Position numbers and translations under genes: made by a program. Positions 4,095-31,340 of a stretch of 64,000 bases of DNA are shown in pieces. The notes beneath the pieces were generated by a model, which saw only the letters and a program-made list of their open reading frames with translations, did no database searches and had not been told where the DNA came from. The stretch spans positions 12,859 through 76,858 of the forward strand of contig JBHPCZ010000001.1 in assembly GCA_042573625.1 (NCBI GenBank). The letters run 5' to 3'. Numbering within the stretch: position 1 is the first letter of the stretch; each line of letters begins with the position of its first letter. Origin of the DNA: Thermodesulfobacteriota bacterium. Lineage in GTDB: Bacteria > Desulfobacterota > Desulfobacteria > Desulfobacterales > UBA11574.

Positions 4095-6515
4095 ATGAAG
4101 GTCAGTTTAAGCTGGTTAAGCGAATATGTTGATATTGAAATAAAAGCAAACGACCTGGCAGACGCCCTTACTATGGCCGGTCTTGAAGTTGAAACTGTTT
4201 CAGACCGCTATGATTACCTTAATCGTGTTGTTGTCGGTCGAGTTGCCGAAATTCGCCCGCATCCCAAAAATGACGCGCTGAAGCTATGCCGGGTAGAAAC
4301 CGGTGGCAGCACGATCTCAGTCGTCTGCGGTGCGCCCAATACAAAAGAAGACATGCTTGCACCATGTGCCTTTCCCGGCACGGTGTTGCCAAACGGAACC
4401 GTCCTCGAAAAAAGTCTGATTCGAGAAGAAGTGTCGGAAGGGATGCTTTGCAGCGAAATCGAATTGGGGTTGGGTACCGGAAGTGACGGTATCATGGAAC
4501 TCGGTCGGAATCTTTCAATCGGTGATCCGCTGAATCAAGCCCTTAATTTATCTGACACAGTATTCGAAATCGATTTGACGCCGAACAGACCGGATTGCCT
4601 CAGTGTTATTGGAATTGCTCGCGAAATAGCGGCAATTCAACAAACAAAGATTAAATACCCTGAGATTCACCTGCCGGAATCATCTGATGACATATCCGAA
4701 TATACCTCTGTTACAATAAACGACCCTGAATTATGCCCAAGATATGCCGCCAGTCTTATTTTTGACATCACTGTCGGGCCGTCTCCTTATTGGCTTCAGG
4801 ACCGTTTAATTTCAGTAGGTTTAAAACCGATCAACAATATTGTTGATATTACCAACTTTGTAATGATGGAAACCGGTCAGCCGCTCCACGCCTTTGACCT
4901 TGACCACCTTGCCGAGAACCGGATCATCGTACGCACAGCCGGTAAGGGAGAAGCTTTTATTACACTGGACGGGAAAGAACGCCGCCTTGACCCGGAAATG
5001 CTGATGATCTGCGATGGTAAAAAACCTGTCGCTATCGGGGGCGTTATGGGCGGGCTCAACTCGGAAGTTGAAAATTCTACGACAAAAATTCTTCTCGAGA
5101 GCGCATATTTCAACCCGGTCAGCATTAGAAAGACTTCAAAAAAATTAGGGTTAAATACAGACGCTTCGCACCGTTTTGAGCGCGGCGTCGATCCCGGCGG
5201 TACCCTTCGGGCATTACACCGGGCAACACAGCTCATTGCTGAAATCGGCAACGGCAAAATGGTTAAGGGCGTGATCGACGAATATCCGAACCCTGCCTCG
5301 GGAAAGACGATCATTCTTAGCGCCAAAGCCTTAAATCACCACCTGGGTACTCGCCTAAATTTGGCTGAAATCAATAACCATTTAAAATCGATTGAATTTG
5401 AAGTTAAAAAAATCGATGATGACAAACTCCAGGTTGTTCCTCCGTCATGCAGGGTCGATATCAGCAGGTTTGAAGACCTTTCAGAGGAAATTGCGCGTCT
5501 GTATGGCTATAACAATATCGAAACCACCTTTCCATCGATACCGGCTGAATCCAGACAGGCTTCAGAGAAGATTGTCTCAAGAGACCTTGCCAAACGATTG
5601 ATGATCGGATTGGGGTTTAACGAAGCAATCAATTACAGTTTTATCAGCAAATTGTCTGGTGATCGGCTTGAACTGGAACCGGATGATCCCAAAAGAAACA
5701 CTGTGGACATTTTAAATCCGTTGTCTGAAGACCAGTCTGTGTTGAGAACATCTTTGATACCCGGGCTGCTCGAAACAATGCATTACAATCTTTCGATGCA
5801 GAATAACAATGTCAAGCTGTTTGAGATCGGCAATGTCTTTTTTAACACCGGCCAGAAAGATGCTCAGCCTGATGAGGTTGAAATGTTTGCAGGACTCTGG
5901 ACAGGGCATAGGGTCGACGCTGCCTGGTTTTCCAAGGAGATCCATTGTGATTTTTATGACTTAAAAGGCGTTGTTGAAGAGCTTTTAAGAAATTTGGGCG
6001 GCATTACCGCCACATTTGCCCGAATACCGCCGGAATCCTGTTTTATCACAAGACCCGGATCCACGGCCCAGATTATTGTTGAAAACGAATGGGCGGGACT
6101 CATCGGAGAAGTACATCCAGCATTAATTCGGAATTACAATCTGAAACAGAAGACGTTTATTTTTGAACTCAATTTCGATCAGTTGATCGCCCATATTCAA
6201 GACCCTAAATCCACACAACCTCTCCCGAAATTTCCACCGACATCAAGGGATGTCACACTGATTGTCGATACGGACATTGAAGCGTATAATATTCTGAAAA
6301 GCGTTGAAAATCTCAATGAAGAACTGATTGAAGATATTCATCTCTTTGCTGTTTTTCAGGGTGACCCGGTTCCTGTGGGGAAAAAAAGTATTTCATTCAG
6401 AATAACCTACAGGTCTTCGACTGAAACTCTGGAAGATAACACAGTCAATCACCTTCACATGCAAATCGCTGACAAGGTTGTGAAAAAATTTAATGCAACA
6501 CTACCGAGTCTATAA
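4095..6515 (+). CDS. pheT: phenylalanine--tRNA ligase beta subunit
   Basis: 806-aa ORF starting 1 nt after the pheS stop. Carries the MKVSLSWL N-terminus, a tRNA-binding domain and B3/4, B5 and FDX-ACB-like regions. Confidence 0.95.
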   Translation: MKVSLSWLSEYVDIEIKANDLADALTMAGLEVETVSDRYDYLNRVVVGRVAEIRPHPKNDALKLCRVETGGSTISVVCGAPNTKEDMLAPCAFPGTVLPNGTVLEKSLIREEVSEGMLCSEIELGLGTGSDGIMELGRNLSIGDPLNQALNLSDTVFEIDLTPNRPDCLSVIGIAREIAAIQQTKIKYPEIHLPESSDDISEYTSVTINDPELCPRYAASLIFDITVGPSPYWLQDRLISVGLKPINNIVDITNFVMMETGQPLHAFDLDHLAENRIIVRTAGKGEAFITLDGKERRLDPEMLMICDGKKPVAIGGVMGGLNSEVENSTTKILLESAYFNPVSIRKTSKKLGLNTDASHRFERGVDPGGTLRALHRATQLIAEIGNGKMVKGVIDEYPNPASGKTIILSAKALNHHLGTRLNLAEINNHLKSIEFEVKKIDDDKLQVVPPSCRVDISRFEDLSEEIARLYGYNNIETTFPSIPAESRQASEKIVSRDLAKRLMIGLGFNEAINYSFISKLSGDRLELEPDDPKRNTVDILNPLSEDQSVLRTSLIPGLLETMHYNLSMQNNNVKLFEIGNVFFNTGQKDAQPDEVEMFAGLWTGHRVDAAWFSKEIHCDFYDLKGVVEELLRNLGGITATFARIPPESCFITRPGSTAQIIVENEWAGLIGEVHPALIRNYNLKQKTFIFELNFDQLIAHIQDPKSTQPLPKFPPTSRDVTLIVDTDIEAYNILKSVENLNEELIEDIHLFAVFQGDPVPVGKKSISFRITYRSSTETLEDNTVNHLHMQIADKVVKKFNATLPSL

Positions 6516-12649: not shown

Positions 12650-13618
12650 ATGAATCAAATAATACAACACTTGAAAAGCAGAAATCATTTTCTACTTGTT
12701 ACCCACACCGGTCCAGACGGCGATGCAATTGGATCTTTGATCGCTATGGGACTTGCTCTCGATACATTGAATAAACAGACAACCTTATACAATGAGAGTC
12801 CCATTCCGGCTGTGTATCGGTTTCTGCCCTCGGTCAATCGTGTAGTGTCTCACATCGATAAAGAAGATTATGAGGCTGCCATTATTCTTGATTGCGGCGA
12901 GTTGGAACGAGTAGGAGAGGCTGCTGCGGACATCAGCCGGATACCGATCATTATCAACATTGACCACCATATCACCAATACCCGTTTTGGCGATTACCAG
13001 CTCATCGATACATCTGCATGCGCCACCGCGGAAATCGTTTACCACGTGATAAAAGAAATGAATGTGCCGATTGACAAAGCCATTGCCACCTCTATTTATA
13101 CGGGTATTTTAACGGATACAGGCTCGTTTCGTTTTTCTAACACGAACAGGGCCGCTTTTGCCATTTGTGAAGAAATGGTGAACCTGGGTATTGATCCCTA
13201 CACCATCGCTCAACATGTTTACGGCGCCTACTCCCTGGGCCGCATAAAGCTTCTTAATCTGGCCCTTGACTCCATTGAAATATCCGATAACGGCAAGCTG
13301 TCGATAATGACCGTCACTCAGAACATGCTTAAAAAAACAAATACCCGGCCCGAAGACGTTGACGGACTTATTCATTACGCAAGGGCTATAAAGGATGTCA
13401 AAGTCGCCGCACTTGTACAAGAACACAGCAACGACAAAGGGCAATCAAATGGTTGTTGCAACTTTAATGTGAGCCTTCGTTCTGACGGAACGGTGGATGT
13501 GGCAGAAATCGCCGCCGCTTATGGCGGAGGCGGCCATTTCAGTGCTGCGGGCTTTAAAACAAATTCGGCATTACCTGAAATAAAATCTAAAATTGTCAAT
13601 TTAGCTGAAAAAATCTAA
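12650..13618 (+). CDS. DHH/DHHA1 family phosphoesterase (NrnA-like oligoribonuclease/pAp phosphatase)
   Basis: Motifs THTGPDGDAIGS, DCGE, NIDHH and GGGGHFSAAG. Confidence 0.8.
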   Translation: MNQIIQHLKSRNHFLLVTHTGPDGDAIGSLIAMGLALDTLNKQTTLYNESPIPAVYRFLPSVNRVVSHIDKEDYEAAIILDCGELERVGEAAADISRIPIIINIDHHITNTRFGDYQLIDTSACATAEIVYHVIKEMNVPIDKAIATSIYTGILTDTGSFRFSNTNRAAFAICEEMVNLGIDPYTIAQHVYGAYSLGRIKLLNLALDSIEISDNGKLSIMTVTQNMLKKTNTRPEDVDGLIHYARAIKDVKVAALVQEHSNDKGQSNGCCNFNVSLRSDGTVDVAEIAAAYGGGGHFSAAGFKTNSALPEIKSKIVNLAEKI

Positions 13619-21652: not shown

Positions 21653-21711
21653 TTTAGAAACTTCTTTCTGAAACTATCACTGCGGTACATTTAGATTTGG
21701 AACCTACTGCT

Positions 21712-23907
21712 ATGAAACCGCTCCGGAGATTGCCACAGCCTGCCGACGCCATAATCCAGATTCTTATAGATAAGTCGTTTCTTTTTTTACTCTATAGAAC
21801 TGTTCTGCTTATTGTTTTTACCTTCTCTTTCGCACAGGCCGCCGAAGACCAGCCGGAGATACATCAGATGGAAGAGGTTACGGTAACCGCAACCCGGATG
21901 GAAAGAAAGGCCGTTGAAGTTCCGGCAAGCATTGCCGTTGTCGGGGAAAATGACATAAAAGACACCCGGATGTTTAACCTCAAAGAAGCACTGTTGGGCA
22001 TCCCCGGCGTTCTTATTGACACCCGCAACCAGGGCTACGATTCCCGACTCCTGATTCGGGGGGCCGGATTGAAAGCCAGGTACGGGGTGAGAGACATTAT
22101 GGTTTTGCTCAACGGCGTTCCGATTACTGATCCGGACAGCCTCTCCCGTCTGGATTTTATAGACACCCAGCTGATTCAAAGAATTGAGGTGGCCAAGGGC
22201 CCCAACTCCACCCTGTGGGGCGCTAATGCAGCCGGGGGCGTTATCAACATCATAACCAAAAATCCTCTGGACAGGCAGGGCGGCGTCTTTAAAATCGGTG
22301 CAGGGGACTATAACGCCCAAAATTATCATCTTTCCTATTCCGACGATCTGTCTGAGAACTTTTATTATACGGTAAGCGGAAGCCGCAGGCAGTCGGACAA
22401 TGACTGGCGTCGATGGAATGAGTTTTATACCAACCAGGGGGCTGTCCAGGCCGCTTATGTGTTTGAAGACGAATCTATCCTTGAAAACCACATCAGTTAT
22501 ACCAAAGCTTCACTGCAACTGCCCGGAAAATTGAACCAAACCCAGTTCGATCAGTACCAGCAAACGGGCGAAGCCCATGCGACCGATGGCCCCTGGCAGC
22601 ATTCGGGTAGATATTCTGAAACTTTCTTTTTCAGTTCGAAACTATCCAAAACCGTCGGCACTTTTGATTTCGAGCCCCTTTTATTTATCAACAGGTGGAC
22701 GCACCACCACCCTGTAACCGGAAGAATCAACGATTCCGATACACTCTCCTGCGGCACGGATATCCAGACAAACCTTCGGCATGCTTTCGGAAAAATGAAA
22801 GGGACGCTGACCGCCGGCGTTACCGCCCGGTTTGACAAGCAGGACACGGATTATTTTGAATATGCCGATGTGCTTAAGACCCCCGGCGGGAGAATTACTG
22901 CCACCCTTAGTGATACGCCCGGAAATTTGATCGAGATACAGAATCGCGGTGTCCAGCTTTACGGGGTGTATTTTCAGGAATCGATCCGGCCTTCAGATCG
23001 GTGGATTATCGACCTGGGTGTTCGGTTTGACATCATTGATTTCGATATCGATGGGACAAAAAGGGCCGAATACGACTATAGTACCGGAACGTACGTAGAA
23101 TGTCCGGACGCCGGTCTGACGAATTGCGGAAATTATCAGATCAATAAAACTTTTAACGACTTCAGCCCACGGGTCGGAGCGGTGGTCAAGCTGTCGGAAA
23201 GCACAAATTTGTATGGCAATATTTCCAAGGGCATTCAGACGCCCACCGAAGGAGAGATCAGCGAAAATCCCGATCTGGAACTTGTGGAAGTTGAAAACTA
23301 TGAAGTCGGTGTCAAACTGAGATATCCCGGATGCTCCCTGGAAACGGCCCTGTATTACTCTCCGGTAAAAAATGAAATCGTTAAGGTCGTTCAAGAAGAC
23401 GGCGATACCGAATACAGCAACGCCGGCAGGACCAGAAAAACAGGCTTTGAGCTGACAGGGTCCCTGGAGTTGATACCCCGGTTGACCCTGGGCGCCGCGT
23501 ATTCATTTACGCATTACACGTTCGAAGAATTCACAGAAACCATCAGGGTGGGTGCCTCGACGCAAAATATCGACCGAAGCGGCAACCGGCTGCCGTATAT
23601 CCCCGAGCATCAGTACTCGTTTTTTGCCGCTTACCGACATCCGTCGGGGTTGAAGTTCAAGCTTCAATCCCATACCTGGGGGTCCTATTACACCGACAAC
23701 GCCAATACCGAGAAATACAACGGATATGCTTTTATCACCGGCGTCATGATCGGGTATGAATGGAAAGCATTCAATATTGGACTAAACATTGACAACCTGT
23801 TTGACGAACACTATGCCGTGGAAGTCGAAAAGGACAGCAGCGGAATAAAACGCTATACGCCGGCCGCACCGAGAAGTTTTATACTCCGGGTTTCATACAA
23901 TTTCTGA
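21712..23907 (+). CDS. TonB-dependent outer-membrane receptor
   Basis: Signal peptide ending SFAQA. Plug region (EVTVTATR...VPASIAVV...LLGIPGV...RGAG) and a beta-barrel ending in a C-terminal aromatic residue (RVSYNF). Confidence 0.85.
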   Translation: MKPLRRLPQPADAIIQILIDKSFLFLLYRTVLLIVFTFSFAQAAEDQPEIHQMEEVTVTATRMERKAVEVPASIAVVGENDIKDTRMFNLKEALLGIPGVLIDTRNQGYDSRLLIRGAGLKARYGVRDIMVLLNGVPITDPDSLSRLDFIDTQLIQRIEVAKGPNSTLWGANAAGGVINIITKNPLDRQGGVFKIGAGDYNAQNYHLSYSDDLSENFYYTVSGSRRQSDNDWRRWNEFYTNQGAVQAAYVFEDESILENHISYTKASLQLPGKLNQTQFDQYQQTGEAHATDGPWQHSGRYSETFFFSSKLSKTVGTFDFEPLLFINRWTHHHPVTGRINDSDTLSCGTDIQTNLRHAFGKMKGTLTAGVTARFDKQDTDYFEYADVLKTPGGRITATLSDTPGNLIEIQNRGVQLYGVYFQESIRPSDRWIIDLGVRFDIIDFDIDGTKRAEYDYSTGTYVECPDAGLTNCGNYQINKTFNDFSPRVGAVVKLSESTNLYGNISKGIQTPTEGEISENPDLELVEVENYEVGVKLRYPGCSLETALYYSPVKNEIVKVVQEDGDTEYSNAGRTRKTGFELTGSLELIPRLTLGAAYSFTHYTFEEFTETIRVGASTQNIDRSGNRLPYIPEHQYSFFAAYRHPSGLKFKLQSHTWGSYYTDNANTEKYNGYAFITGVMIGYEWKAFNIGLNIDNLFDEHYAVEVEKDSSGIKRYTPAAPRSFILRVSYNF

Positions 23908-23918
23908 GGCAGACGAAA

Positions 23919-24551
23919 ATGCGCTACCGAAAAATCATCACTCTTGTTGCGGCAGTGGCCATCTCCCTGGCCGCCGCCACATACCGCTTTGGGGATTCAG
24001 CACACAGCATCGGTCTTGTTTCGCTCAAAGGCGGTAAGGTTAGACATCCCTTTGTTCTGAAAGGCGGGCAAAAACATTACAGCCTGATTGGCACCGCAAC
24101 CGTTCTCCCGCCCTATCGGGGCGATGTTCGAATTTCGCTCGAAGGCTGGCCTGAAATTGATCATGATATTTTTTTATCCGGACCGGTGATCGATTTCGAC
24201 CTGCATAAACTTCCGGAGTTACGGGACCGCACTCTTTACGGCCTCAAACCCCAAGACAGGATTGCTCTCTGGGTTCGGATACATCCTCCCGTATTCGACC
24301 CGGTGTGCCGTATGAAGGTCGAAGACGGATTCTTGAAATATCATTACGGATCCCGGCAATATCATTTCTGCTCGAAAGCATGCAGAAATGCTTTTCTAAA
24401 ACAACCTGAAAAATATACCGGCAAAGAAGGTGCCTGCGGGAAATACAACCTTGTTTTTCACGATACCAGATCTGGCGCACCGGTCTTGAATATGCCCGTG
24501 AGGTTCAAGGGAAAGGATAAAATGGATGGAAAAAGCCGGCACTCTCACTGA
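23919..24551 (+). CDS. secreted YHS/TRASH-domain metal-binding protein
   Basis: N-terminal signal/anchor. C-terminal DPVCRMKVEDGFLKYHYGSRQYHFCSKACRNAF matches the YHS (TRASH-like) Cys pattern. Confidence 0.7.
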   Translation: MRYRKIITLVAAVAISLAAATYRFGDSAHSIGLVSLKGGKVRHPFVLKGGQKHYSLIGTATVLPPYRGDVRISLEGWPEIDHDIFLSGPVIDFDLHKLPELRDRTLYGLKPQDRIALWVRIHPPVFDPVCRMKVEDGFLKYHYGSRQYHFCSKACRNAFLKQPEKYTGKEGACGKYNLVFHDTRSGAPVLNMPVRFKGKDKMDGKSRHSH

Positions 24552-25353
24552 AAAAAGTTTTTTTATCCGACATCGATACTGGATCATCGCCTTTTCAGCG
24601 TTGCTGTTTCTTCCACCGCTGTCATTTGTTTTCCAGTTTACCGGGGACAGCAACTTCTGCGGCACCTGGTGCCCAAGGATGTTTTTCGTATGGCGTCGGG
24701 GAATGCCAATTGGCGCTTTTTTAGCCTCTTTTTTAAGGAGCTACATGGGCGTTGCCCTTCTGTTCGGGATTCTGATCAGTACCTTTTTTTACAGCAGATA
24801 CTGGTGCAGCCATCTGTGTCCCATCGGGGGAATTATGGAGCTTGGCAGCACGTTGGTTCCGCGGTTTATAAAAATTAATTTTTCAAAAATTCCAGCCCCC
24901 TATTTCCGATACGGCTACCTGTCAGTCTACTTGATTGCCGCAGCAGCCGGCATCGGCAGCTTGTGCTGCGCTTACTGTAATTTTGCTGCCGTACCGCGGA
25001 TGTTCGGCGCCTTGGTTTCACCGGCGGACGTGACCTACTTTTTGAGAAAGGCCGGGCTGATCAACCTGGGCCTGGTCGTTTTCCTGGGCTTTATGTCCAG
25101 AGGAGGCCGAGCATACTGCAACCTGATCTGTCCAGTGGGTGCTCTGGATGCACTGTCAAACCGGCTGGGCAATCGTTGGGGAAAAAGGGTCAGGATTTCC
25201 GCTGAGATCTGTGACAATTGCGGCCAGTGCGTGGACAACTGTCCGGTATGGGCCATTGAAACCGGTGAAAAGACAAAAATCGATCCACATTCCTGCATCC
25301 CCTGCAGAATTTGTGAAATCTCCTGTCATAAAAATGCTATTGTTTATGAATAG
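24526..25353 (+). CDS. membrane-bound 4Fe-4S protein (NapH/MauN-like polyferredoxin)
   Basis: Several TM segments. Cys motifs CSHLCP and CNLICP, plus a C-terminal 2x[4Fe-4S] ferredoxin (CDNCGQCVDNCP, CIPCRICEISCH). Confidence 0.75.
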   Translation: MEKAGTLTEKSFFIRHRYWIIAFSALLFLPPLSFVFQFTGDSNFCGTWCPRMFFVWRRGMPIGAFLASFLRSYMGVALLFGILISTFFYSRYWCSHLCPIGGIMELGSTLVPRFIKINFSKIPAPYFRYGYLSVYLIAAAAGIGSLCCAYCNFAAVPRMFGALVSPADVTYFLRKAGLINLGLVVFLGFMSRGGRAYCNLICPVGALDALSNRLGNRWGKRVRISAEICDNCGQCVDNCPVWAIETGEKTKIDPHSCIPCRICEISCHKNAIVYE

Positions 25354-25497: not shown

Positions 25498-25640
25498 TCT
25501 GAAAGTTAAAATATTTGTGATATTGTTTTCCGATAGGGCGAATCCATTTTGCGGGGTTTGCCTTTTTGATTTTTTGTGGATTACTCGATATGTATAATCG
25601 TGATAGCCCGGCTTCAGGTTGTGTTTATTGTAAGATATGC
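25498..25640 (+). repeat. 3' module, copy A (homologous to 31195-31340)
   Basis: Aligns with copy B across the terminator and about 60 nt beyond it. Shared blocks: TTGTGrTATyGTTTT, GGGCrAATCCATTT, GGGGTTTG, ATATGTA, GGCTTCAG and TTGTAAG. Confidence 0.7.
25537..25575 (+). terminator. rho-independent terminator inside 3' module A
   Basis: GGCGAATCC pairs with GGGTTTGCC (2 G-U pairs) around an 8-nt loop. Followed by TTTTTGATTTTTT. Lies between convergent genes. Confidence 0.6.
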
Positions 25641-25722: not shown

Positions 25723-26628
25723 TTATTTTTTATATTGTCTACCACCGGAACCACCACCGGGACCGCCACCGAAACCACCACCGGGACCACCACCAAGACT
25801 ATCAATGGGGCTAGCATCGAAGTCGCCTGCCCCTCTTTGATCGTCAGTTTTCCAGGGTTGGGTATGTATATCGGAGCTAAGATTTTCTGCTCTTACCCCA
25901 TGACTGATAGCATGAGAATACTGGTTGGCAAGTTTGACTGGATCAGTGCTCCTGGAATGACTCATAAACGAATGGCGCAGCTGTTTCATTTCCTGGGTGC
26001 TGTATTGCTGATTATGTGCATGACACACTACGTCTTTTGCAATTCTAGATGAAACACCGAGACGGGCCATATCTCTGAGCGATAGAAAACTTTCCTGGGC
26101 AAGCGCTTCTGTGTTGGTTTTCGTTCTCTGTTGTGTTCTGTTCTGCAATCTATTCATGACCTGAACAGCATCCTTGTTGTGTATACCGGCTGTAAATCCC
26201 TCTGCAATAGCCTTCGTAATATCGTGTATACGATCTGTATTTTGCGTAATTTGTCTGGCATGATTATTTGCGATTGAGTAGCGATATCGTGTCCTCTCCA
26301 TTGCTCGAAGCACTAAATCTTGAGGAGCATTTTTGGCAAGACCCTCAAAAGCTTTATTCATAACAGGCTTAACCGGCAAACTTTCTTTTACAGTAGCCAT
26401 CAAGATCTGTTGTGCTCGTATGGTGTTTTGGTTCTGGTAATTGTTTTGTATCATCATTTTAGTCACTTTTACGGCTTCATCTCTATGAATACCAGCATTA
26501 ACCATGGCACGAGTATGGGTTCTGATCTGCTCGTTGGCTATTGTAGATAGTTCACGATCAACTTCATCCCCAAAAGCCAAGGATGCAACAAGGGAAATGC
26601 CGAATATGACAATTAAAAATTTTTTCAT
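25723..26628 (-). CDS. secreted helical protein with a Gly-rich C-terminal tail
   Basis: 301-aa ORF with signal peptide MKKFLIVIFGISLVASLAFG and tail GGGPGGGFGGGPGGGSGGRQYKK. Last gene of the ECF sigma operon. No family recognised. Confidence 0.6.
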   Translation of the reverse strand: MKKFLIVIFGISLVASLAFGDEVDRELSTIANEQIRTHTRAMVNAGIHRDEAVKVTKMMIQNNYQNQNTIRAQQILMATVKESLPVKPVMNKAFEGLAKNAPQDLVLRAMERTRYRYSIANNHARQITQNTDRIHDITKAIAEGFTAGIHNKDAVQVMNRLQNRTQQRTKTNTEALAQESFLSLRDMARLGVSSRIAKDVVCHAHNQQYSTQEMKQLRHSFMSHSRSTDPVKLANQYSHAISHGVRAENLSSDIHTQPWKTDDQRGAGDFDASPIDSLGGGPGGGFGGGPGGGSGGRQYKK

Positions 26629-26682
26629 GATTTCGTCCTATATTAAGGCTTTATTCTTTATAACGTATTTAGGGGTAAAAGG

Positions 26683-27009
26683 TTACATGTCCGGGACAAA
26701 AATACAATTTTCGGAACCAAAATCGTCCTTCTCTTTAAACCGACAGGGCGGTACATACACGATACCGTCTATAATATAAAAGTAAGTAAATTCTAATCCT
26801 GCTGGCATCGTCACCAACCAGGTCTTTGAATCAATTTTTTCTACCTGATGAAGTTGATATCCATCCTCTGAGGATGCAAATGAGACAGTATGTGCTTCCG
26901 GTTTTTCTAGATATATGTGTGTCAAATTTCCTTTAACTTGACAAAAATGGCCTGTACACCCCATTAAGCTCATTGCCAGAAATAAAGTTGCTGTAATAGA
27001 ACGTTTCAT
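26683..27009 (-). CDS. lipoprotein with a CBM48/AMPK-beta GBD-like (E-set) domain
   Basis: Lipobox LMGC. The C-terminus KDDFGSENCIFVP parallels PDDFGGENSIFYV of the adjacent anti-sigma factor. Confidence 0.6.
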   Translation of the reverse strand: MKRSITATLFLAMSLMGCTGHFCQVKGNLTHIYLEKPEAHTVSFASSEDGYQLHQVEKIDSKTWLVTMPAGLEFTYFYIIDGIVYVPPCRFKEKDDFGSENCIFVPDM

Positions 27010-27569
27010 ATTTTGTTCTTTACATAAAATATGGAGTTCTCACCACCAAAATCATCTGGCTCCCGGGTTAGTATCGTTGGATCAGCGAATGGTTGCTGGC
27101 CCTCTATCAAATAGGTAAAGCGATGCTCTCCTTCTTTCAATTCATAGGTGACCTCCCAGTACCCGCTGTTGCCGATTTTTTGCATTGGAACTCGTTCCCA
27201 TTCTGTAAAGCTCCCCGTGATCTCTACCTGGCTGACATTCGGTTTGTAAACTACAAATCGTTTCACTACCGGGCTAGGTATTGGCGACGGTACGGTAAGA
27301 AACAGATAAATAACTGTGGCGGCCAATGCCGATGTAACCAGACCCATCGGCTGAAAAAAGGGACTGAAAAATCTTTTCCAGCTAAAAGGTGTCATCACTT
27401 TAGCGGATGGAATATGTTCGACAACATCACTCTGGATGAGTTTTTCCTGATGCAATAATTCTAATACCTCATCGGTAAAAGATTTATCTTTTTGCATGGT
27501 TTCAATAAAATCAATTTTGTCATCAACGTTCATCTCATTATCAATAAACATGCTGATATTATAATTCAT
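27006..27569 (-). CDS. anti-sigma factor, single TM, extracytoplasmic CBM48-like domain
   Basis: 4-nt overlap with the downstream gene and directly abuts the sigma gene. One TM segment (GLVTSALAATVIYLFLTV). The C-terminal ITGSFTEWERVPM...GYWEV...LKEGEHRFTYLIEG...ADP resembles the AMPK-beta glycogen-binding module. Confidence 0.65.
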   Translation of the reverse strand: MNYNISMFIDNEMNVDDKIDFIETMQKDKSFTDEVLELLHQEKLIQSDVVEHIPSAKVMTPFSWKRFFSPFFQPMGLVTSALAATVIYLFLTVPSPIPSPVVKRFVVYKPNVSQVEITGSFTEWERVPMQKIGNSGYWEVTYELKEGEHRFTYLIEGQQPFADPTILTREPDDFGGENSIFYVKNKI

Positions 27570-28055: not shown

Positions 28056-28083
28056 ATAACGTACGAAACATCAAAAGGTTACA
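28056..28083 (-). promoter_or_regulatory. ECF-type promoter (autoregulatory candidate) TGTAACCTTTT-N11-CGTTAT
   Basis: The minus strand reads TGTAACCTTTTGATGTTTCGTACGTTAT and ends 9 nt before the sigma ATG (28046). It has the same motif and spacing as the plus-strand copy at 28228. Confidence 0.55.
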
Positions 28084-28227: not shown

Positions 28228-28255
28228 TGTAACCTTTTCACACCCCATACGTTAT
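28228..28255 (+). promoter_or_regulatory. ECF-type promoter, divergent twin of 28056-28083
   Basis: TGTAACCTTTTCACACCCCATACGTTAT. The -35-like (GTAACC) and -10-like (CGTTAT) boxes are identical and the offset is the same 22 nt. Confidence 0.55.
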
Positions 28256-29517: not shown

Positions 29518-29664
29518 ATGAAAAAACTTTTTTTGATCTTGGTAATCTTTGTATCGTTTACAGCGTTTGCTTTTGCCGGTGGTGACCAAAATCATGGCAG
29601 CAAGGGACAAGGCAGTACAGGTAGTGACGGACAAGGCCAAACAACCCAACAGCGAGGCGATTAA
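29518..29664 (+). CDS. small secreted Gly/Gln-rich peptide (48 aa), below the ORF-track length cutoff
   Basis: Hand translation: MKKLFLILVIFVSFTAFAFAGGDQNHGSKGQGSTGSDGQGQTTQQRGD. SD AGGAAAGG directly upstream. Classic signal peptide. Confidence 0.5.
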   Translation: MKKLFLILVIFVSFTAFAFAGGDQNHGSKGQGSTGSDGQGQTTQQRGD

Positions 29665-29791
29665 ATAATTCACTCAACAAAAAGGGGGATAAATGGAACT
29701 TGTGACGACGCCACTTCTTGAAAAATGGAAGGTGGAAAGTGCTGAGTTTCTGTGTGTACTGCCGTAAAAACAGGATTAGGGTTTCTTTTTT

Positions 29792-30010
29792 ATGATTAAT
29801 ATTGTCAGAAATAGAAGAGGTAGACGACCCAGAACAGCCAGACGGGCATCCTTAAGAGACAGGCGGGCATTCTTAAGAGACAGACGGGCATCCTTAATAG
29901 ATAGAAGGGCATTCTTATCTGTAGTCCGTATTCCTAATAGAAGAAGTGGAAGAGACAGAAGGAGTTGGTCTGACCGCAGAGGTGGCGTTGAACGCAGAAG
30001 TATTCACTAA
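29792..30010 (+). CDS. Arg-rich DRR-repeat small protein (coding status uncertain)
   Basis: 72-aa ORF containing RRASLRD RRAFLRD RRASLID RRAFLSV, then RRSGRD RRSWSD RRGGVE RRS. The RR periodicity continues past the DNA repeat. SD is weak. Confidence 0.4.
   Translation: MINIVRNRRGRRPRTARRASLRDRRAFLRDRRASLIDRRAFLSVVRIPNRRSGRDRRSWSDRRGGVERRSIH
29839..29943. repeat. tandem 21-bp repeats (4 good copies plus 1 degenerate)
   Basis: CAGACGGGCATCCTTAAGAGA / CAGGCGGGCATTCTTAAGAGA / CAGACGGGCATCCTTAATAGA / TAGAAGGGCATTCTTATCTGT / AGTCCGTATTCCTAATAGA. Confidence 0.85.
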
Positions 30011-30069
30011 TTGAAGTGAAACTAAATATCACTCCCAAGTGTCTTAGATAAAGGGTTTTGGAATTTACC

Positions 30070-30444
30070 ATGGATAGTAAGGAATTTAAAAGCTTCCGCC
30101 TAAAAATGAACAAGACGCAACACCAGGTGAGCCGTCTACTCGGAACGTCTATAAAGACTATACAAAGTTATGAACAGGGTTGTCGAAACATACCAAATCA
30201 CGCAGAGCGGCAGATGCTTTATCTAATTTCCAGGATGAAAGAAAGCCACAATACTCAAAAACCATGCTGGGTTATCAAACAATGTCCTCGATGGGTAAAA
30301 AATAAATGCCCGGCCTGGGAATTTGATTCGGGGGATTTATGCTGGTTTATTAATGGTACATATTGTGGTGGTAATGTTGTTGAGAGCTGGGAACAAAAAA
30401 TGAAACTTTGCCGGTCCTGTGAAGCTTTCTCATTCTTGAGCTAA
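30070..30444 (+). CDS. XRE-family HTH regulator with a C-terminal Cys/Trp-rich (two-CW-like) domain
   Basis: HTH is FRLKMNKTQHQVSRLLGTSIKTIQSYEQG. C-terminus is PCWVIKQCPRWVKNKCPAWEF..DLCWFINGTYCGG...CRSCEAF. ATG at 30070 preferred over the TTG at 30058. Confidence 0.75.
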   Translation: MDSKEFKSFRLKMNKTQHQVSRLLGTSIKTIQSYEQGCRNIPNHAERQMLYLISRMKESHNTQKPCWVIKQCPRWVKNKCPAWEFDSGDLCWFINGTYCGGNVVESWEQKMKLCRSCEAFSFLS

Positions 30445-30523
30445 CTCAAAAACACTTCTAATCATACAACGATACTTTCGATAATGGTTTGAAATCCTCT
30501 GTCCGAAACCTGTGTGTTCTGCA

Positions 30524-30669
30524 ATAAAACACACCAAATATTGTATTCGTCTTTCTTCATAGCCTAAAAACCTTGTACCACAACTCCTATAAAAACATCC
30601 CACAATGTGTGATAACCTATTTGAATTACTACATAAATTGTCATAATTTTCTTGACAACGTCACAATCC
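30524..30669 (+). repeat. 5' promoter-region module, copy B (homologous to 21511-21652)
   Basis: See copy A. Carries the exact 17-mer at 30593-30609. Confidence 0.7.
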
Positions 30670-30680
30670 TTGTTCATAAT
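30652..30680 (+). promoter_or_regulatory. sigma-70-type promoter
   Basis: TTGACA (30652-30657), a 17-nt spacer, then CATAAT (30675-30680). Lies about 120 nt upstream of the 30802 gene. Confidence 0.55.
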
Positions 30681-30721
30681 TTACTGTGGCCAATCTTTCT
30701 AATTCAAAAAAGGGATATAAC

Positions 30722-30808
30722 ATGAATTGTATCCCCTTTGATATCCCCTGCTTGCCATGGGGAGCGTCATTTAATTTAATCAGTAACAGAAAGGGGGCAG
30801 AATGTTAA
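30722..30808 (+). CDS. candidate upstream ORF / leader peptide (28 aa) overlapping the start of the next gene
   Basis: Hand translation: MNCIPFDIPCLPWGASFNLISNRKGAEC. AAGGGA lies 6 nt upstream. The stop TAA (30806-30808) overlaps the ATG at 30802. The region also folds into two hairpins. Confidence 0.3.
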   Translation: MNCIPFDIPCLPWGASFNLISNRKGAEC

Positions 30809-31152
30809 AAAAAATGTTCAAGATTATTTTTTTCGTTTTTCTGGTGGGGCTTTTGATTTCGCCGGCGTGGAGCTCAGACAACATCGTCATCGACACGGAT
30901 CGTAATTTAATTCTCGCTGGAAGCGGAGGAGGAGACCAAGACAGAGACCAAGACAGAAAGCGTGACGAATCTTGTAACGACCTCGCCCCTTACAACCCTG
31001 TTCATCCTTTAATTCTCGCTAGAGGAGGAAACGGTGGCAACGGCGGCGGCGGTGGCCACGGCGGCGGTGGCGGCGGCGATCAAAGCAGGGACAGGGACTG
31101 TGACGATGGTGACGGCCCTCAACCTGAAGGCCCTAACGGCCCCGGCACCTGA
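30802..31152 (+). CDS. secreted Gly/Asp/His-rich repeat protein
   Basis: Signal peptide ending PAWS. Internal duplication: LILAGSGGGDQDRDQDRKRDESCND versus LILARGGNGGNGGGGGHGGGGGGDQSRDRDCDDGD. SD GGGGG upstream. Confidence 0.65.
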   Translation: MLKKMFKIIFFVFLVGLLISPAWSSDNIVIDTDRNLILAGSGGGDQDRDQDRKRDESCNDLAPYNPVHPLILARGGNGGNGGGGGHGGGGGGDQSRDRDCDDGDGPQPEGPNGPGT

Positions 31153-31194
31153 GATTGTAACCCGTGACGGAACTTGCGACGACGCCACTTCTTA

Positions 31195-31340
31195 AAAACC
31201 TGAAAATGTTGTGGTATCGTTTTTCAATAAGGGCAAATCCATTTGATGGGGTTTGTCCTTTTATTTTTATGATATATGTAATCAGTAAGAGCAGGCTTCA
31301 GCCTGTGATATTTGTAAGTATCTGCAATAACCTGCAAATA
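31195..31340 (+). repeat. 3' module, copy B (homologous to 25498-25640)
   Basis: See copy A. Confidence 0.7.
31230..31267 (+). terminator. rho-independent terminator inside 3' module B
   Basis: GGGCAAATCC pairs with GGGTTTGTCC (2 G-U pairs) around an 8-nt loop. Followed by TTTTATTTTT. Confidence 0.6.

Follow-up and report, generated by a model that had tools for sequence, protein, structure and literature searches.

The window analysed here is a 64,000-nucleotide (nt) stretch of a metagenome-assembled genome (MAG) of a Thermodesulfobacteriota bacterium (positions 12,859 to 76,858 of the 94-kb contig JBHPCZ010000001.1, assembly GCA_042573625.1). Three open reading frames (ORFs), all within 5.5 kb, encode products that look secreted and are rich in glycine: a 48-amino-acid (aa) ORF, the gene for a 116-aa protein and the gene for a 301-aa protein (Table 1). 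Each product begins with a Sec-type N-terminus, in which a Lys-rich n-region and a hydrophobic core of 12-17 residues are followed by a cleavage-like site. A crude signal-peptide screen of all 815 ORFs of the window returned 11 signal-peptide-like ORFs of at least 40 aa, and Gly density ranks 1-3 among these were taken by the 48-aa, 116-aa and 301-aa products; the Gly-rich composition signal is therefore real and locally concentrated. A previous sequence-only reading of this DNA had pointed to the same three ORFs; its coordinates were right, and the strings it quoted are all present in the translations. Among the three products, sequence searches found homologues only for the 116-aa protein, which is the main subject of what follows.

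Table 1. Coordinates of features in the window and in the loci of relatives (L numbers).
Feature	Position	Strand	Basis and remarks
48-aa ORF	29518-29664	+	ORF listing; signal-like end between AFA and G (putative mature N-terminus GGDQNH...), then a 28-aa remainder rich in Gly, Gln, Ser and Asp
116-aa protein gene	30802-31152	+	ORF listing; signal-like end between AWS and S (putative mature N-terminus SDNIVI...)
Signal-peptide coding part, MLKKMFKIIFFVFLVGLLISPAWS followed by S	30802-30873	+	Residues 1-24; putative cleavage after AWS, from the sequence
Module 1, LILAGSGGGDQDRDQDRKRDESCND	30907-30981	+	Residues 36-60; alignment, internal DNA repeat
Module 2, LILARGGNGGNGGGGGHGGGGGGDQSRDRDCDDGDGPQPEGPNGPGT	31009-31149	+	Residues 70-116; alignment
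Sigma-70-type promoter-like site, TTGACA-17-CATAAT	30652-30680	+	11/12 matches; consensus match only
Predicted 5' leader	30686-30801	+	Minimum-free-energy fold -31.7 kcal/mol, z -1.45
Intrinsic-terminator-like hairpin and U-tract	31229-31260	+	Ends the 116-aa transcription unit
25-nt box, copy 1, GGAACTTGTGACGACGCCACTTCTT	29695-29719	+	30 nt after the stop codon of the 48-aa ORF
25-nt box, copy 2, GGAACTTGCGACGACGCCACTTCTT	31169-31193	+	16 nt after the stop codon of the 116-aa gene
301-aa protein gene	25723-26628	-	ORF listing; signal-like end between AFG and D; C-terminal GGGPGGGFGGGPGGGSGG tail
Extracytoplasmic function (ECF)-type promoter motif, TGTAACCTTTT-N10-ACGTTAT	26660-26687; 28056-28083; 28228-28255	-; -; +	Three exact copies
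Partner-gene stretches of relatives	L015 5415-10351; L024 6615-12044; L018 783-1364; L011 1652-5102		
Enhancer and sigma-54 promoter of relatives	L015 4830-4925; L018 ~90-200; L023 ~5775-5920; L024 ~5725-5835		
~130-nt leader of relatives	L001 36-167; L007 7875-8003; L008 7877-8003; L009 1480-1610; L010 109-243; L016 4875-5003		

The 116-aa protein (NCBI MFC1811101.1, locus ACFL03_00215) is annotated as hypothetical. The codon usage of its gene is gene-like, the coding region lies between a promoter-like site and a terminator-like hairpin, and it has a Shine-Dalgarno sequence and many homologues; it is an ordinary-looking, genuinely undescribed conserved gene, of which the window copy is diverged and solo. 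A word-indexed search with the protein returned only itself and one 100-aa metagenomic protein (P0002), to which BLASTP aligned its first 64 residues at 48% identity (expectation value, E, 9e-17). A HMMER profile of these two proteins gave 18 matches of 63-149 aa among 1.84 billion cluster representatives (an extra match, the 1,903-aa P0096, was set aside as unrelated), and a 15-member profile gave at least 190 sequence clusters in a set of 5.8 billion proteins. All 190 are named 'hypothetical' or bear plainly spurious automatic names, and every member with an organism name comes from the Desulfobacteria; named carriers include Desulfosarcina alkanivorans (DSCA_52440, 44 aa in its predicted mature form), Desulfospira joergensenii, Desulfonema limicola, Desulfobacula, Desulfatiglandales and Desulfamplus magnetovallimortis. 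A family hidden Markov model (HMM) built without the window protein scores that protein at 63.7 bits (E 2e-18). The sequence-only reading had proposed low-complexity-aware searches in Desulfobacterota as a check, and those run here show the 116-aa ORF to be conserved at the protein level. That it is a member of an undescribed family of small exported Gly/Asp-rich repeat proteins limited to Desulfobacteria is well supported by these sequence comparisons.

Members of the family are 54-180 aa long and have the form of Sec-exported proteins. Their most conserved segment is the signal peptide, which is strikingly conserved in one branch (MLKKxxKIGCxVxVxGLLSxPAWS) and ordinary and variable in other branches. 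Each protein has one to three modules, built from a hydrophobic anchor, LILA(H/K/R), a Gly run, a core, [H/Y/N]GPGDG[T/S]GN[G/D]GxGPxDG[T/S]G[N/Y/H]GPG, and one Cys, with LLARGGNGNGG standing before later modules; the full module pattern reads LILA(H/K/R)GG-[H/Y/N]GPGDGTGNGGxGPxDGTGNGPGDC. The chain often stops where a module ends, with GPGDC-A/G/S or G[T/D]C[I/V/L/P]N[S/A]. Near-invariant G, P, D and C columns run through the module alignment, and at least one GPGDGTG-type core is present in 110 of 122 members. On average the mature chains contain 31% Gly, 10.5% Asp, 8.4% Asn and 6.7% Pro; their net charge has a median of -5, and the number of Cys is one or two in most. The family is widespread in Desulfobacteria and very strongly conserved for a low-complexity protein.

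The window protein carries the family signal peptide, MLKKxxKI(GC)...GLLSxPAWS(S/A), in the form MLKKMFKIIFFVFLVGLLISPAWSS, and has the module anchor (LILA, then H, K, R or G) with its Gly run twice, as LILAGSGGG and LILARGGNGGNGG. Its mature chain has 92 aa, a net charge of -9, 26% Gly, two Cys, two His and no Met. Module 1 is a diverged form of LILAxGGxGPGDGTGNGGxGPxDGTGNGPGDC; module 2 retains the family lead-in 'LLARGGNGNGG' and the half-module 'DGDGPxxxGxNGPG', with the Cys position moved and the terminal GPGDC lost. Besides the signal peptide and both anchors, what has been kept is the lead-in (here ARGGNGGNGG) and the half-module DDGDGPQPEGPNGPG, which follows DQDRDQDRKRDESC and DQSRDRDC in the place of the GPGDGTG core. 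The two repeats of the type LILA...DQxRDxD...C(N/D)D that had been noted in this protein lie at residues 36-60 and 70-102 and are also seen as an internal DNA repeat. Their DQxRDxD...C part, which had been taken as a recurring element, turned out to be a recurrent sub-variant within the family, since an ending GDQDRDRDRDDSC like that of the window protein also occurs in P0197 and P0201. Because the GPGDGTG core is replaced and these two relatives have the similar GDQDRDRDRDDSC ending, the window protein is, as judged by sequence, a diverged sub-variant of the family.

The earlier interpretation had gone further and joined the 301-aa tail with the 48-aa and 116-aa products into one local family of secreted Gly-rich products. 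Composition and signal-peptide-like starts are common to all three, which are the top three Gly-rich signal-peptide-like ORFs of the window; GGDQ is present in both the 48-aa and the 116-aa products, and the 25-nt box stands in the 3' flanks of both ORFs. However, BLASTP, the family HMM and shuffles revealed no similarity beyond composition. BLASTP of the 48-aa against the 116-aa product gave E 0.39, and the family HMM gave the 48-aa ORF -0.1 bits (E 58); among the family-HMM matches listed (to about E 59), the 301-aa protein is not one of those that score above the 48-aa ORF. In composition-preserving shuffle tests, in which the mature peptides were compared, the 48-aa peptide reached z -0.46 with the 116-aa protein and p 0.47 with the best of about 120 family members, each against its own shuffles, and the coding DNA of the two genes showed no similarity (p 0.07). 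The 301-aa tail reached z 2.9 with the 116-aa protein, a value attributed to poly-Gly run structure rather than homology, and the 301-aa gene appears to belong to the regulon of an ECF sigma factor through a promoter motif of its own (see below). By these comparisons the 48-aa ORF and the 301-aa tail fall outside the family of the 116-aa protein, and a single family of three is highly improbable. The earlier interpretation is therefore partly supported: the ORFs, the motifs and the composition stood, whereas the kinship of the three products did not. With relatives found for one of three grouped products, the case illustrates that composition alone can mislead when proteins are grouped.

Pfam and NCBIfam scans gave no meaningful match for the three window products or for ten canonical relatives of the 116-aa protein, in agreement with the earlier statement that no named family matches; a sub-threshold TrAA12 match in these scans was a composition effect. 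In the PDB, a profile search hit nothing but artificial Gly-Ser linkers, and full-text literature searches with motif strings, locus tags and keyword combinations returned nothing relevant on the family. None of Pfam, NCBIfam, the PDB and the searchable literature contains the family. AlphaFold models of the window protein and of the canonical member P0156 (from alignments of 87 and 64 sequences, respectively) contain the signal-peptide helix and no fold; in the window protein the signal peptide is the only part modelled confidently. The predicted local distance difference test (pLDDT) in the mature part is ~50 for the window protein and ~40 for P0156. The mature part is thus predicted to be disordered, and the pLDDT of ~40-50 in these two members fits the disordered periplasmic or surface role that had been suggested.

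The genomic context of the family was compared across 13 further places (L001, L007-L012, L014-L018 and L023-L024, with L019-L022 being repeats of the L018 locus). The family gene opens an operon in L015 (Desulfonema limicola) and L024, where it is followed by genes for a 183-187 aa secreted protein, an outer-membrane barrel of ~325 aa, a 125-130 aa periplasmic protein, a histidine kinase and a sigma-54 response regulator. The operon proteins of the two loci are 40-73% identical, and parts of the operon are present in L011 and L018-L022. The recurring partners are a 183-200 aa secreted protein, the barrel and a 125-163 aa periplasmic protein ending DPTGVRxRxGRGRG. Local searches found no Pfam, NCBIfam or PDB relative for the partner genes beyond a weak match of the barrel to BBP2_2 (E 2e-7 and 0.016), and such a BBP2-like barrel occurs in two loci only. 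A precomputed PF26390 (MamS_MamX) match on the 183-aa protein of L024, unrecovered with local Pfam, is a hint only. The nearest NCBIfam models are AtoS/ZraS for the kinase and AtoC/NtrC/NifA, then ZraR, for the regulator, with all matches well below the equivalog cut-offs (ZraS 129 vs 479 bits; ZraR 361 vs 760 bits). As read from its sequence, the kinase has two membrane-spanning segments that flank a domain of ~230 aa without a family match.

A sigma-54 promoter, TGGCAC-N5-TTGC/TTGA/CTGA, precedes the family gene in four independent loci (L015, L018-L022, L023 and L024), and in the same four an enhancer, TCGACA-N4-TGTCGA-N14-TGTCGA, in which a palindrome is followed by a third TGTCGA, lies with fixed spacing ~90 nt upstream of it. 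In L015 and L024, the operon behind this control region also contains the genes of the cognate kinase and sigma-54 regulator, and L023 has kept the sigma-54 control region with no kinase nearby. Together, these arrangements show that one branch of the family is under sigma-54 and two-component control. Elsewhere, neighbours are proteins of periplasmic redox or metal type: a gene for a di-haem CCP_MauG peroxidase lies directly downstream of the family gene in L008 and L014, and a PepSY-domain cytochrome b561 and a DUF2202 protein are also encoded nearby. At 8547-8828 of L007, the C-terminal ~90 codons of a CCP_MauG gene are left, 81% identical to the L008 enzyme, as a decayed copy.

The window copy stands alone. 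Its promoter-like site, which lies ~120 nt before the start codon, can be aligned with the TTGTGA...AACAAT region of relatives. In its predicted leader, pairing is possible between UCUUUCU (30694-30700) and the Shine-Dalgarno sequence AGAAAGG, with hairpins at 30712-30735 and ~30743-30763 enclosed. The terminator-like hairpin that ends the unit and another such hairpin at 25535-25564 are 5.7 kb apart and 75% identical over 51 nt. Six loci of relatives (L001, L007-L010 and L016) have ~170 nt upstream of the start codon in common, with a conserved promoter region ahead of the leader. In the RNAalifold prediction for the six leaders, a 5' CUCUUU is paired with the Shine-Dalgarno sequence GAAAGGA and encloses three hairpins; 96.7% of the alignment cells pair, and several of the one-sided changes leave a G-U pair. 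Changes on both sides occur in five pairs, a number reached in 11 of 500 shuffles; the covariation score was reached in 4 of 500, and slid controls collapse. This evidence is suggestive of a candidate cis-regulatory RNA, on six sequences only and with hairpins that double as DNA palindromes (GTAATTCGAATTAC; TGTGA-N5-TCACA). Rfam gave no match in the leaders of L001 and L010, the two loci scanned. A covariance model of the six leaders recovers its six training sequences only, and on the window its best local match (30724-30804) is not significant. This match has only 12.3 bits (E 0.16), and homology of the window leader to that of the relatives is no more than plausible.

For the function of the 116-aa protein, the best explanation joins its family identity with the role of an acidic, disordered, cation-binding envelope protein induced by stress, a reading that we put forward tentatively, as one somewhat more likely to be wrong than right. 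Following Sec export, the signal peptide would be cleaved off to leave an acidic, intrinsically disordered protein in the envelope, where regularly spaced Asp, Asn and Thr residues and the one Cys per module could chelate cations. The mature protein might then act as a buffer, sponge or chaperone whose production is triggered by an envelope or metal signal. In one branch, expression would be driven by the sigma-54 promoter and its upstream enhancer, with the AtoSC/ZraSR-like two-component system of the operon; in the branch of the window protein, by a sigma-70-like promoter with a leader able to pair with the Shine-Dalgarno sequence.

Binding of cations or minerals by the family, which the earlier reading had also suggested, would have analogues in known systems. 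EF-hand loops (DxDxDG) and RTX repeats (GGxGxD) resemble the family in the regular spacing of Asp, Asn and Thr with Gly, and in the canonical family stretch DGTGNGGDGPGD positions 1, 3, 5 and 12 of an EF-hand loop are occupied by D, T, N and D. SilE and PcoE are small disordered periplasmic sponges for silver and copper, encoded in the enterobacterial sil and pco systems under two-component control. Like the family they are small, Sec-exported and intrinsically disordered, with repeated short ligand motifs and two-component control, and they may serve as a working model for its action, as an analogy only. A second analogue would be ZraP, a periplasmic protein controlled by sigma-54 and ZraSR (see below). 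The sulfur-globule envelope proteins SgpA-D of purple sulfur bacteria are likewise small, Sec-exported and Gly-rich, without enzymatic domains. They share with the family the form of repeat proteins from bacteria of the sulfur cycle; in contrast, they are Gly/Tyr-rich and non-acidic and belong to sulfur oxidisers that store S0, and the searches run gave no similarity to them.

A number of points weigh against a cation-binding envelope protein of this kind. The window protein lacks the canonical GPGDGTG core. Low AlphaFold confidence is also compatible with a fold that AlphaFold cannot model. None of the operon partner genes is present in the window, and neither a sigma-54 promoter nor an enhancer lies near the window copy; L009, L016, L017 and L023 have no informative neighbour, and the contexts are heterogeneous. 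The barrel in the operon fits surface export as well as a periplasmic role. In SilE and PcoE the ligands are His and Met, in motifs of the MxxH type, and these proteins become helical when they bind metal, whereas the family offers Asp, Asn, Thr and one Cys per module; the window protein, with its two His and no Met, has no Pfam match to these proteins. The EF-hand pattern (PROSITE PS00018) fails in the canonical core at positions 3, 7 and 8, and in the window protein only DQSRDRDCDDGD, in module 2, fits positions 1-12, with Gly at position 13; no other of the 122 members fits positions 1-12. The family further lacks the flanking helices of EF-hands in the AlphaFold models and a hydrophobic residue at position 8 or 13. 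The RTX nonapeptide pattern (GGxGxDxUx) fails as well, the Gly spacing of the family, as read from the sequences, being off by one and the hydrophobic position missing. Pfam gave no RTX/HemolysinCabind match at E up to 1 for the window protein or relatives, and likewise no EF-hand match. Because both DGTGNGGDGPGD and DQSRDRDCDDGD fail the full pattern, the EF-hand likeness is, at the level of sequence, a resemblance and not membership.

An alternative role would be that of a building block of a surface layer or matrix, which we regard as unlikely. The protein would be exported by Sec and then pass through the barrel of the operon, with the two periplasmic helpers, into an extracellular layer or fibre, by a logic analogous to that of curli (CsgA with CsgG and CsgE/F) or Fap (FapC with FapF) and with Cys residues that might cross-link the chains. 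The operon of L015 and L024, in which a repeat protein, two secreted accessory proteins and the BBP2-like barrel are conserved together, resembles these systems in its Sec-exported Gly/Asn-rich repeats, its accessory proteins and its barrel; Gly/Asn-rich repeats are typical of fibre subunits. The variable number of modules (one to three and more) and the one or two Cys of most chains would also suit such a role. On the other hand, Pfam detects no sequence similarity to the curli or Fap proteins, the modules are full of Pro, Asp and Gly without a hydrophobic or Gln/Asn amyloid ladder, the AlphaFold models contain no strands, and most family genes, including that of the window, have no barrel gene nearby.

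A role as signal modulator appears distinctly unlikely. The family protein would then be no bulk buffer, and would act as a periplasmic feedback inhibitor or co-sensor of the histidine kinase, in the manner of ZraP or CpxP. ZraP, of the CpxP/Spy family, is a periplasmic protein made under sigma-54 and ZraSR in Escherichia coli during envelope and zinc stress. The family operon is similar in that the gene of a small periplasmic protein has a sigma-54 promoter and lies next to those of a histidine kinase and a sigma-54 response regulator: the family gene, preceded by the enhancer and promoter, comes first and the kinase and regulator genes last. The unmatched domain of ~230 aa between the membrane spans of the kinase also fits this role. 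However, ZraP is a helical protein with LTXXQ motifs, whereas the family has no LTXXQ motif and a mature part predicted to be non-helical, and neither Pfam nor NCBIfam matched the window protein or the ten relatives to the CpxP/Spy/ZraP family. Moreover, many genomes have family genes far from such a kinase, some with two copies (L012), and free variation in repeat number would be unusual for a protein with a specific partner.

That the family consists of precursors of ribosomally synthesized and post-translationally modified peptides (RiPPs) or of Gly-rich microcin-like bacteriocins, with the conserved N-terminus as leader and the MauG-type di-haem enzyme as modifier, is very improbable: the N-terminus is conserved and the C-terminal part more variable, the Cys is invariant and the CCP_MauG gene follows directly in two loci with a remnant in a third, but the N-terminus reads as a textbook Sec signal peptide with no double-glycine or RiPP leader, the core is highly conserved and not hypervariable, CCP_MauG is missing from most loci and from the window, and no radical-SAM, YcaO, lanthipeptide or ABC-protease gene occurs among the annotated neighbours of the loci with listed genes, nor any RiPP modifying enzyme or leader-cleaving exporter in the window.

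Returning to the acidic envelope protein, a broader and still doubtful proposal is that the family is the lead product of an undescribed sigma-54/two-component envelope system of Desulfobacteria that captures or organises metals or minerals (for example Fe/S or Ca phases), of which the window copy would be a solo derivative. Such a system would consist of the repeat protein, a MamS/MamX-like secreted protein, the outer-membrane barrel and the small periplasmic protein, acting in the periplasm or at the surface, and the window derivative would have been rewired to its own promoter and a Shine-Dalgarno-sequestering RNA leader. Sulfate-reducing Desulfobacteria inhabit metal- and sulfide-rich sediments, and to our knowledge little has been described of how their envelope handles cations and nascent minerals. 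Because the regulatory handles are clear, whether these are the sigma-54 promoter with its enhancer, the dedicated kinase and regulator or the conserved leader, the inducing signal is directly testable.

Whether the 48-aa ORF is a gene stands at roughly even odds. It has a good signal-peptide pattern, a Shine-Dalgarno-like AGGAAAGG and the 25-nt box downstream. It is unannotated by NCBI and has no copy in a collection of 15 billion proteins; its codon score lies at the 6th percentile of real gene segments and is equalled by that of an antisense ORF, and no promoter-like site was called upstream. The two copies of the box, GGAACTTG(T/C)GACGACGCCACTTCTT, are identical at 24 of 25 positions, with two matches found against none expected by chance, and weaker similarity continues past the box for ~100 nt (to ~29817 for copy 1 and ~31294 for copy 2). 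No conserved fold, hairpin or Rfam match was found for it, and no exact match in 185,579 representative genomes (GTDB). An ORF of 24 codons (29693-29767) opens at copy 1 and has gene-like codon usage and a Shine-Dalgarno sequence; at copy 2, both the start codon and the Shine-Dalgarno sequence are missing. The box core TTGYGACGACGNCC also occurs in the -35 region of the family promoters in L008 and L010, which may be chance.

Between the 48-aa ORF and the 116-aa gene, 30058-30444 (probable ATG at 30070) encodes a regulator in which an HTH_3 domain is combined with a two-CW domain at the C-terminus (NF045718, E 4e-12). In Desulfobacteria, 77 homologues share 48-84% identity with it, the closest being P0007 (84% identical, from a Thermodesulfobacteriota MAG). 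Relatives of this regulator lie directly upstream of metY-metX-metW-like genes (L002-L006), which is not so in the window, and a synteny check found no Gly-rich gene near the homologues. Just upstream of the two-CW gene, a 72-aa ORF with 36% Arg (29792-30010) runs through approximately four 21-nt tandem units (…GGGCAT(C/T)CTTAAGAGACAG…; repeats at 29833-29916). It has non-coding-like codons and no Shine-Dalgarno sequence, no such Arg-rich ORF was found upstream of other two-CW genes, and the more likely reading of the stretch is an array of iterons or operators, not a gene.

The 301-aa product (NCBI ACFL03_00185, hypothetical) is helical-looking, with the form of an exported protein, a poly-Gly tail and no Pfam or NCBIfam family. 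The ECF-type motif occurs three times in the window against 0.04 expected, and its copies lie, in the order of Table 1, before the gene for the 301-aa product, before that for the ECF sigma factor and before a divergent gene whose product is a secreted protein of 159 aa. The motif is probably the promoter motif of the ECF sigma factor, which would control a small regulon; the 301-aa gene is placed in this regulon because it has its own copy. Beside the ECF sigma gene, 27006-27569 (-) encodes a putative anti-sigma factor, with a CBM48/AMPK1_CBM domain of glycogen-binding type (E 2e-10), and the adjacent 108-aa lipoprotein-like ORF (26683-27009, -) has an end similar to that of the anti-sigma factor (…DDFGSENCIFVPDM vs …DDFGGENSIFYV). 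Leading up to the ECF operon, 21697-25353 (+) encodes in a row a TonB-dependent receptor, a YHS-domain protein and a membrane 4Fe-4S (Fer4_5) protein, which may form a metal-uptake unit.

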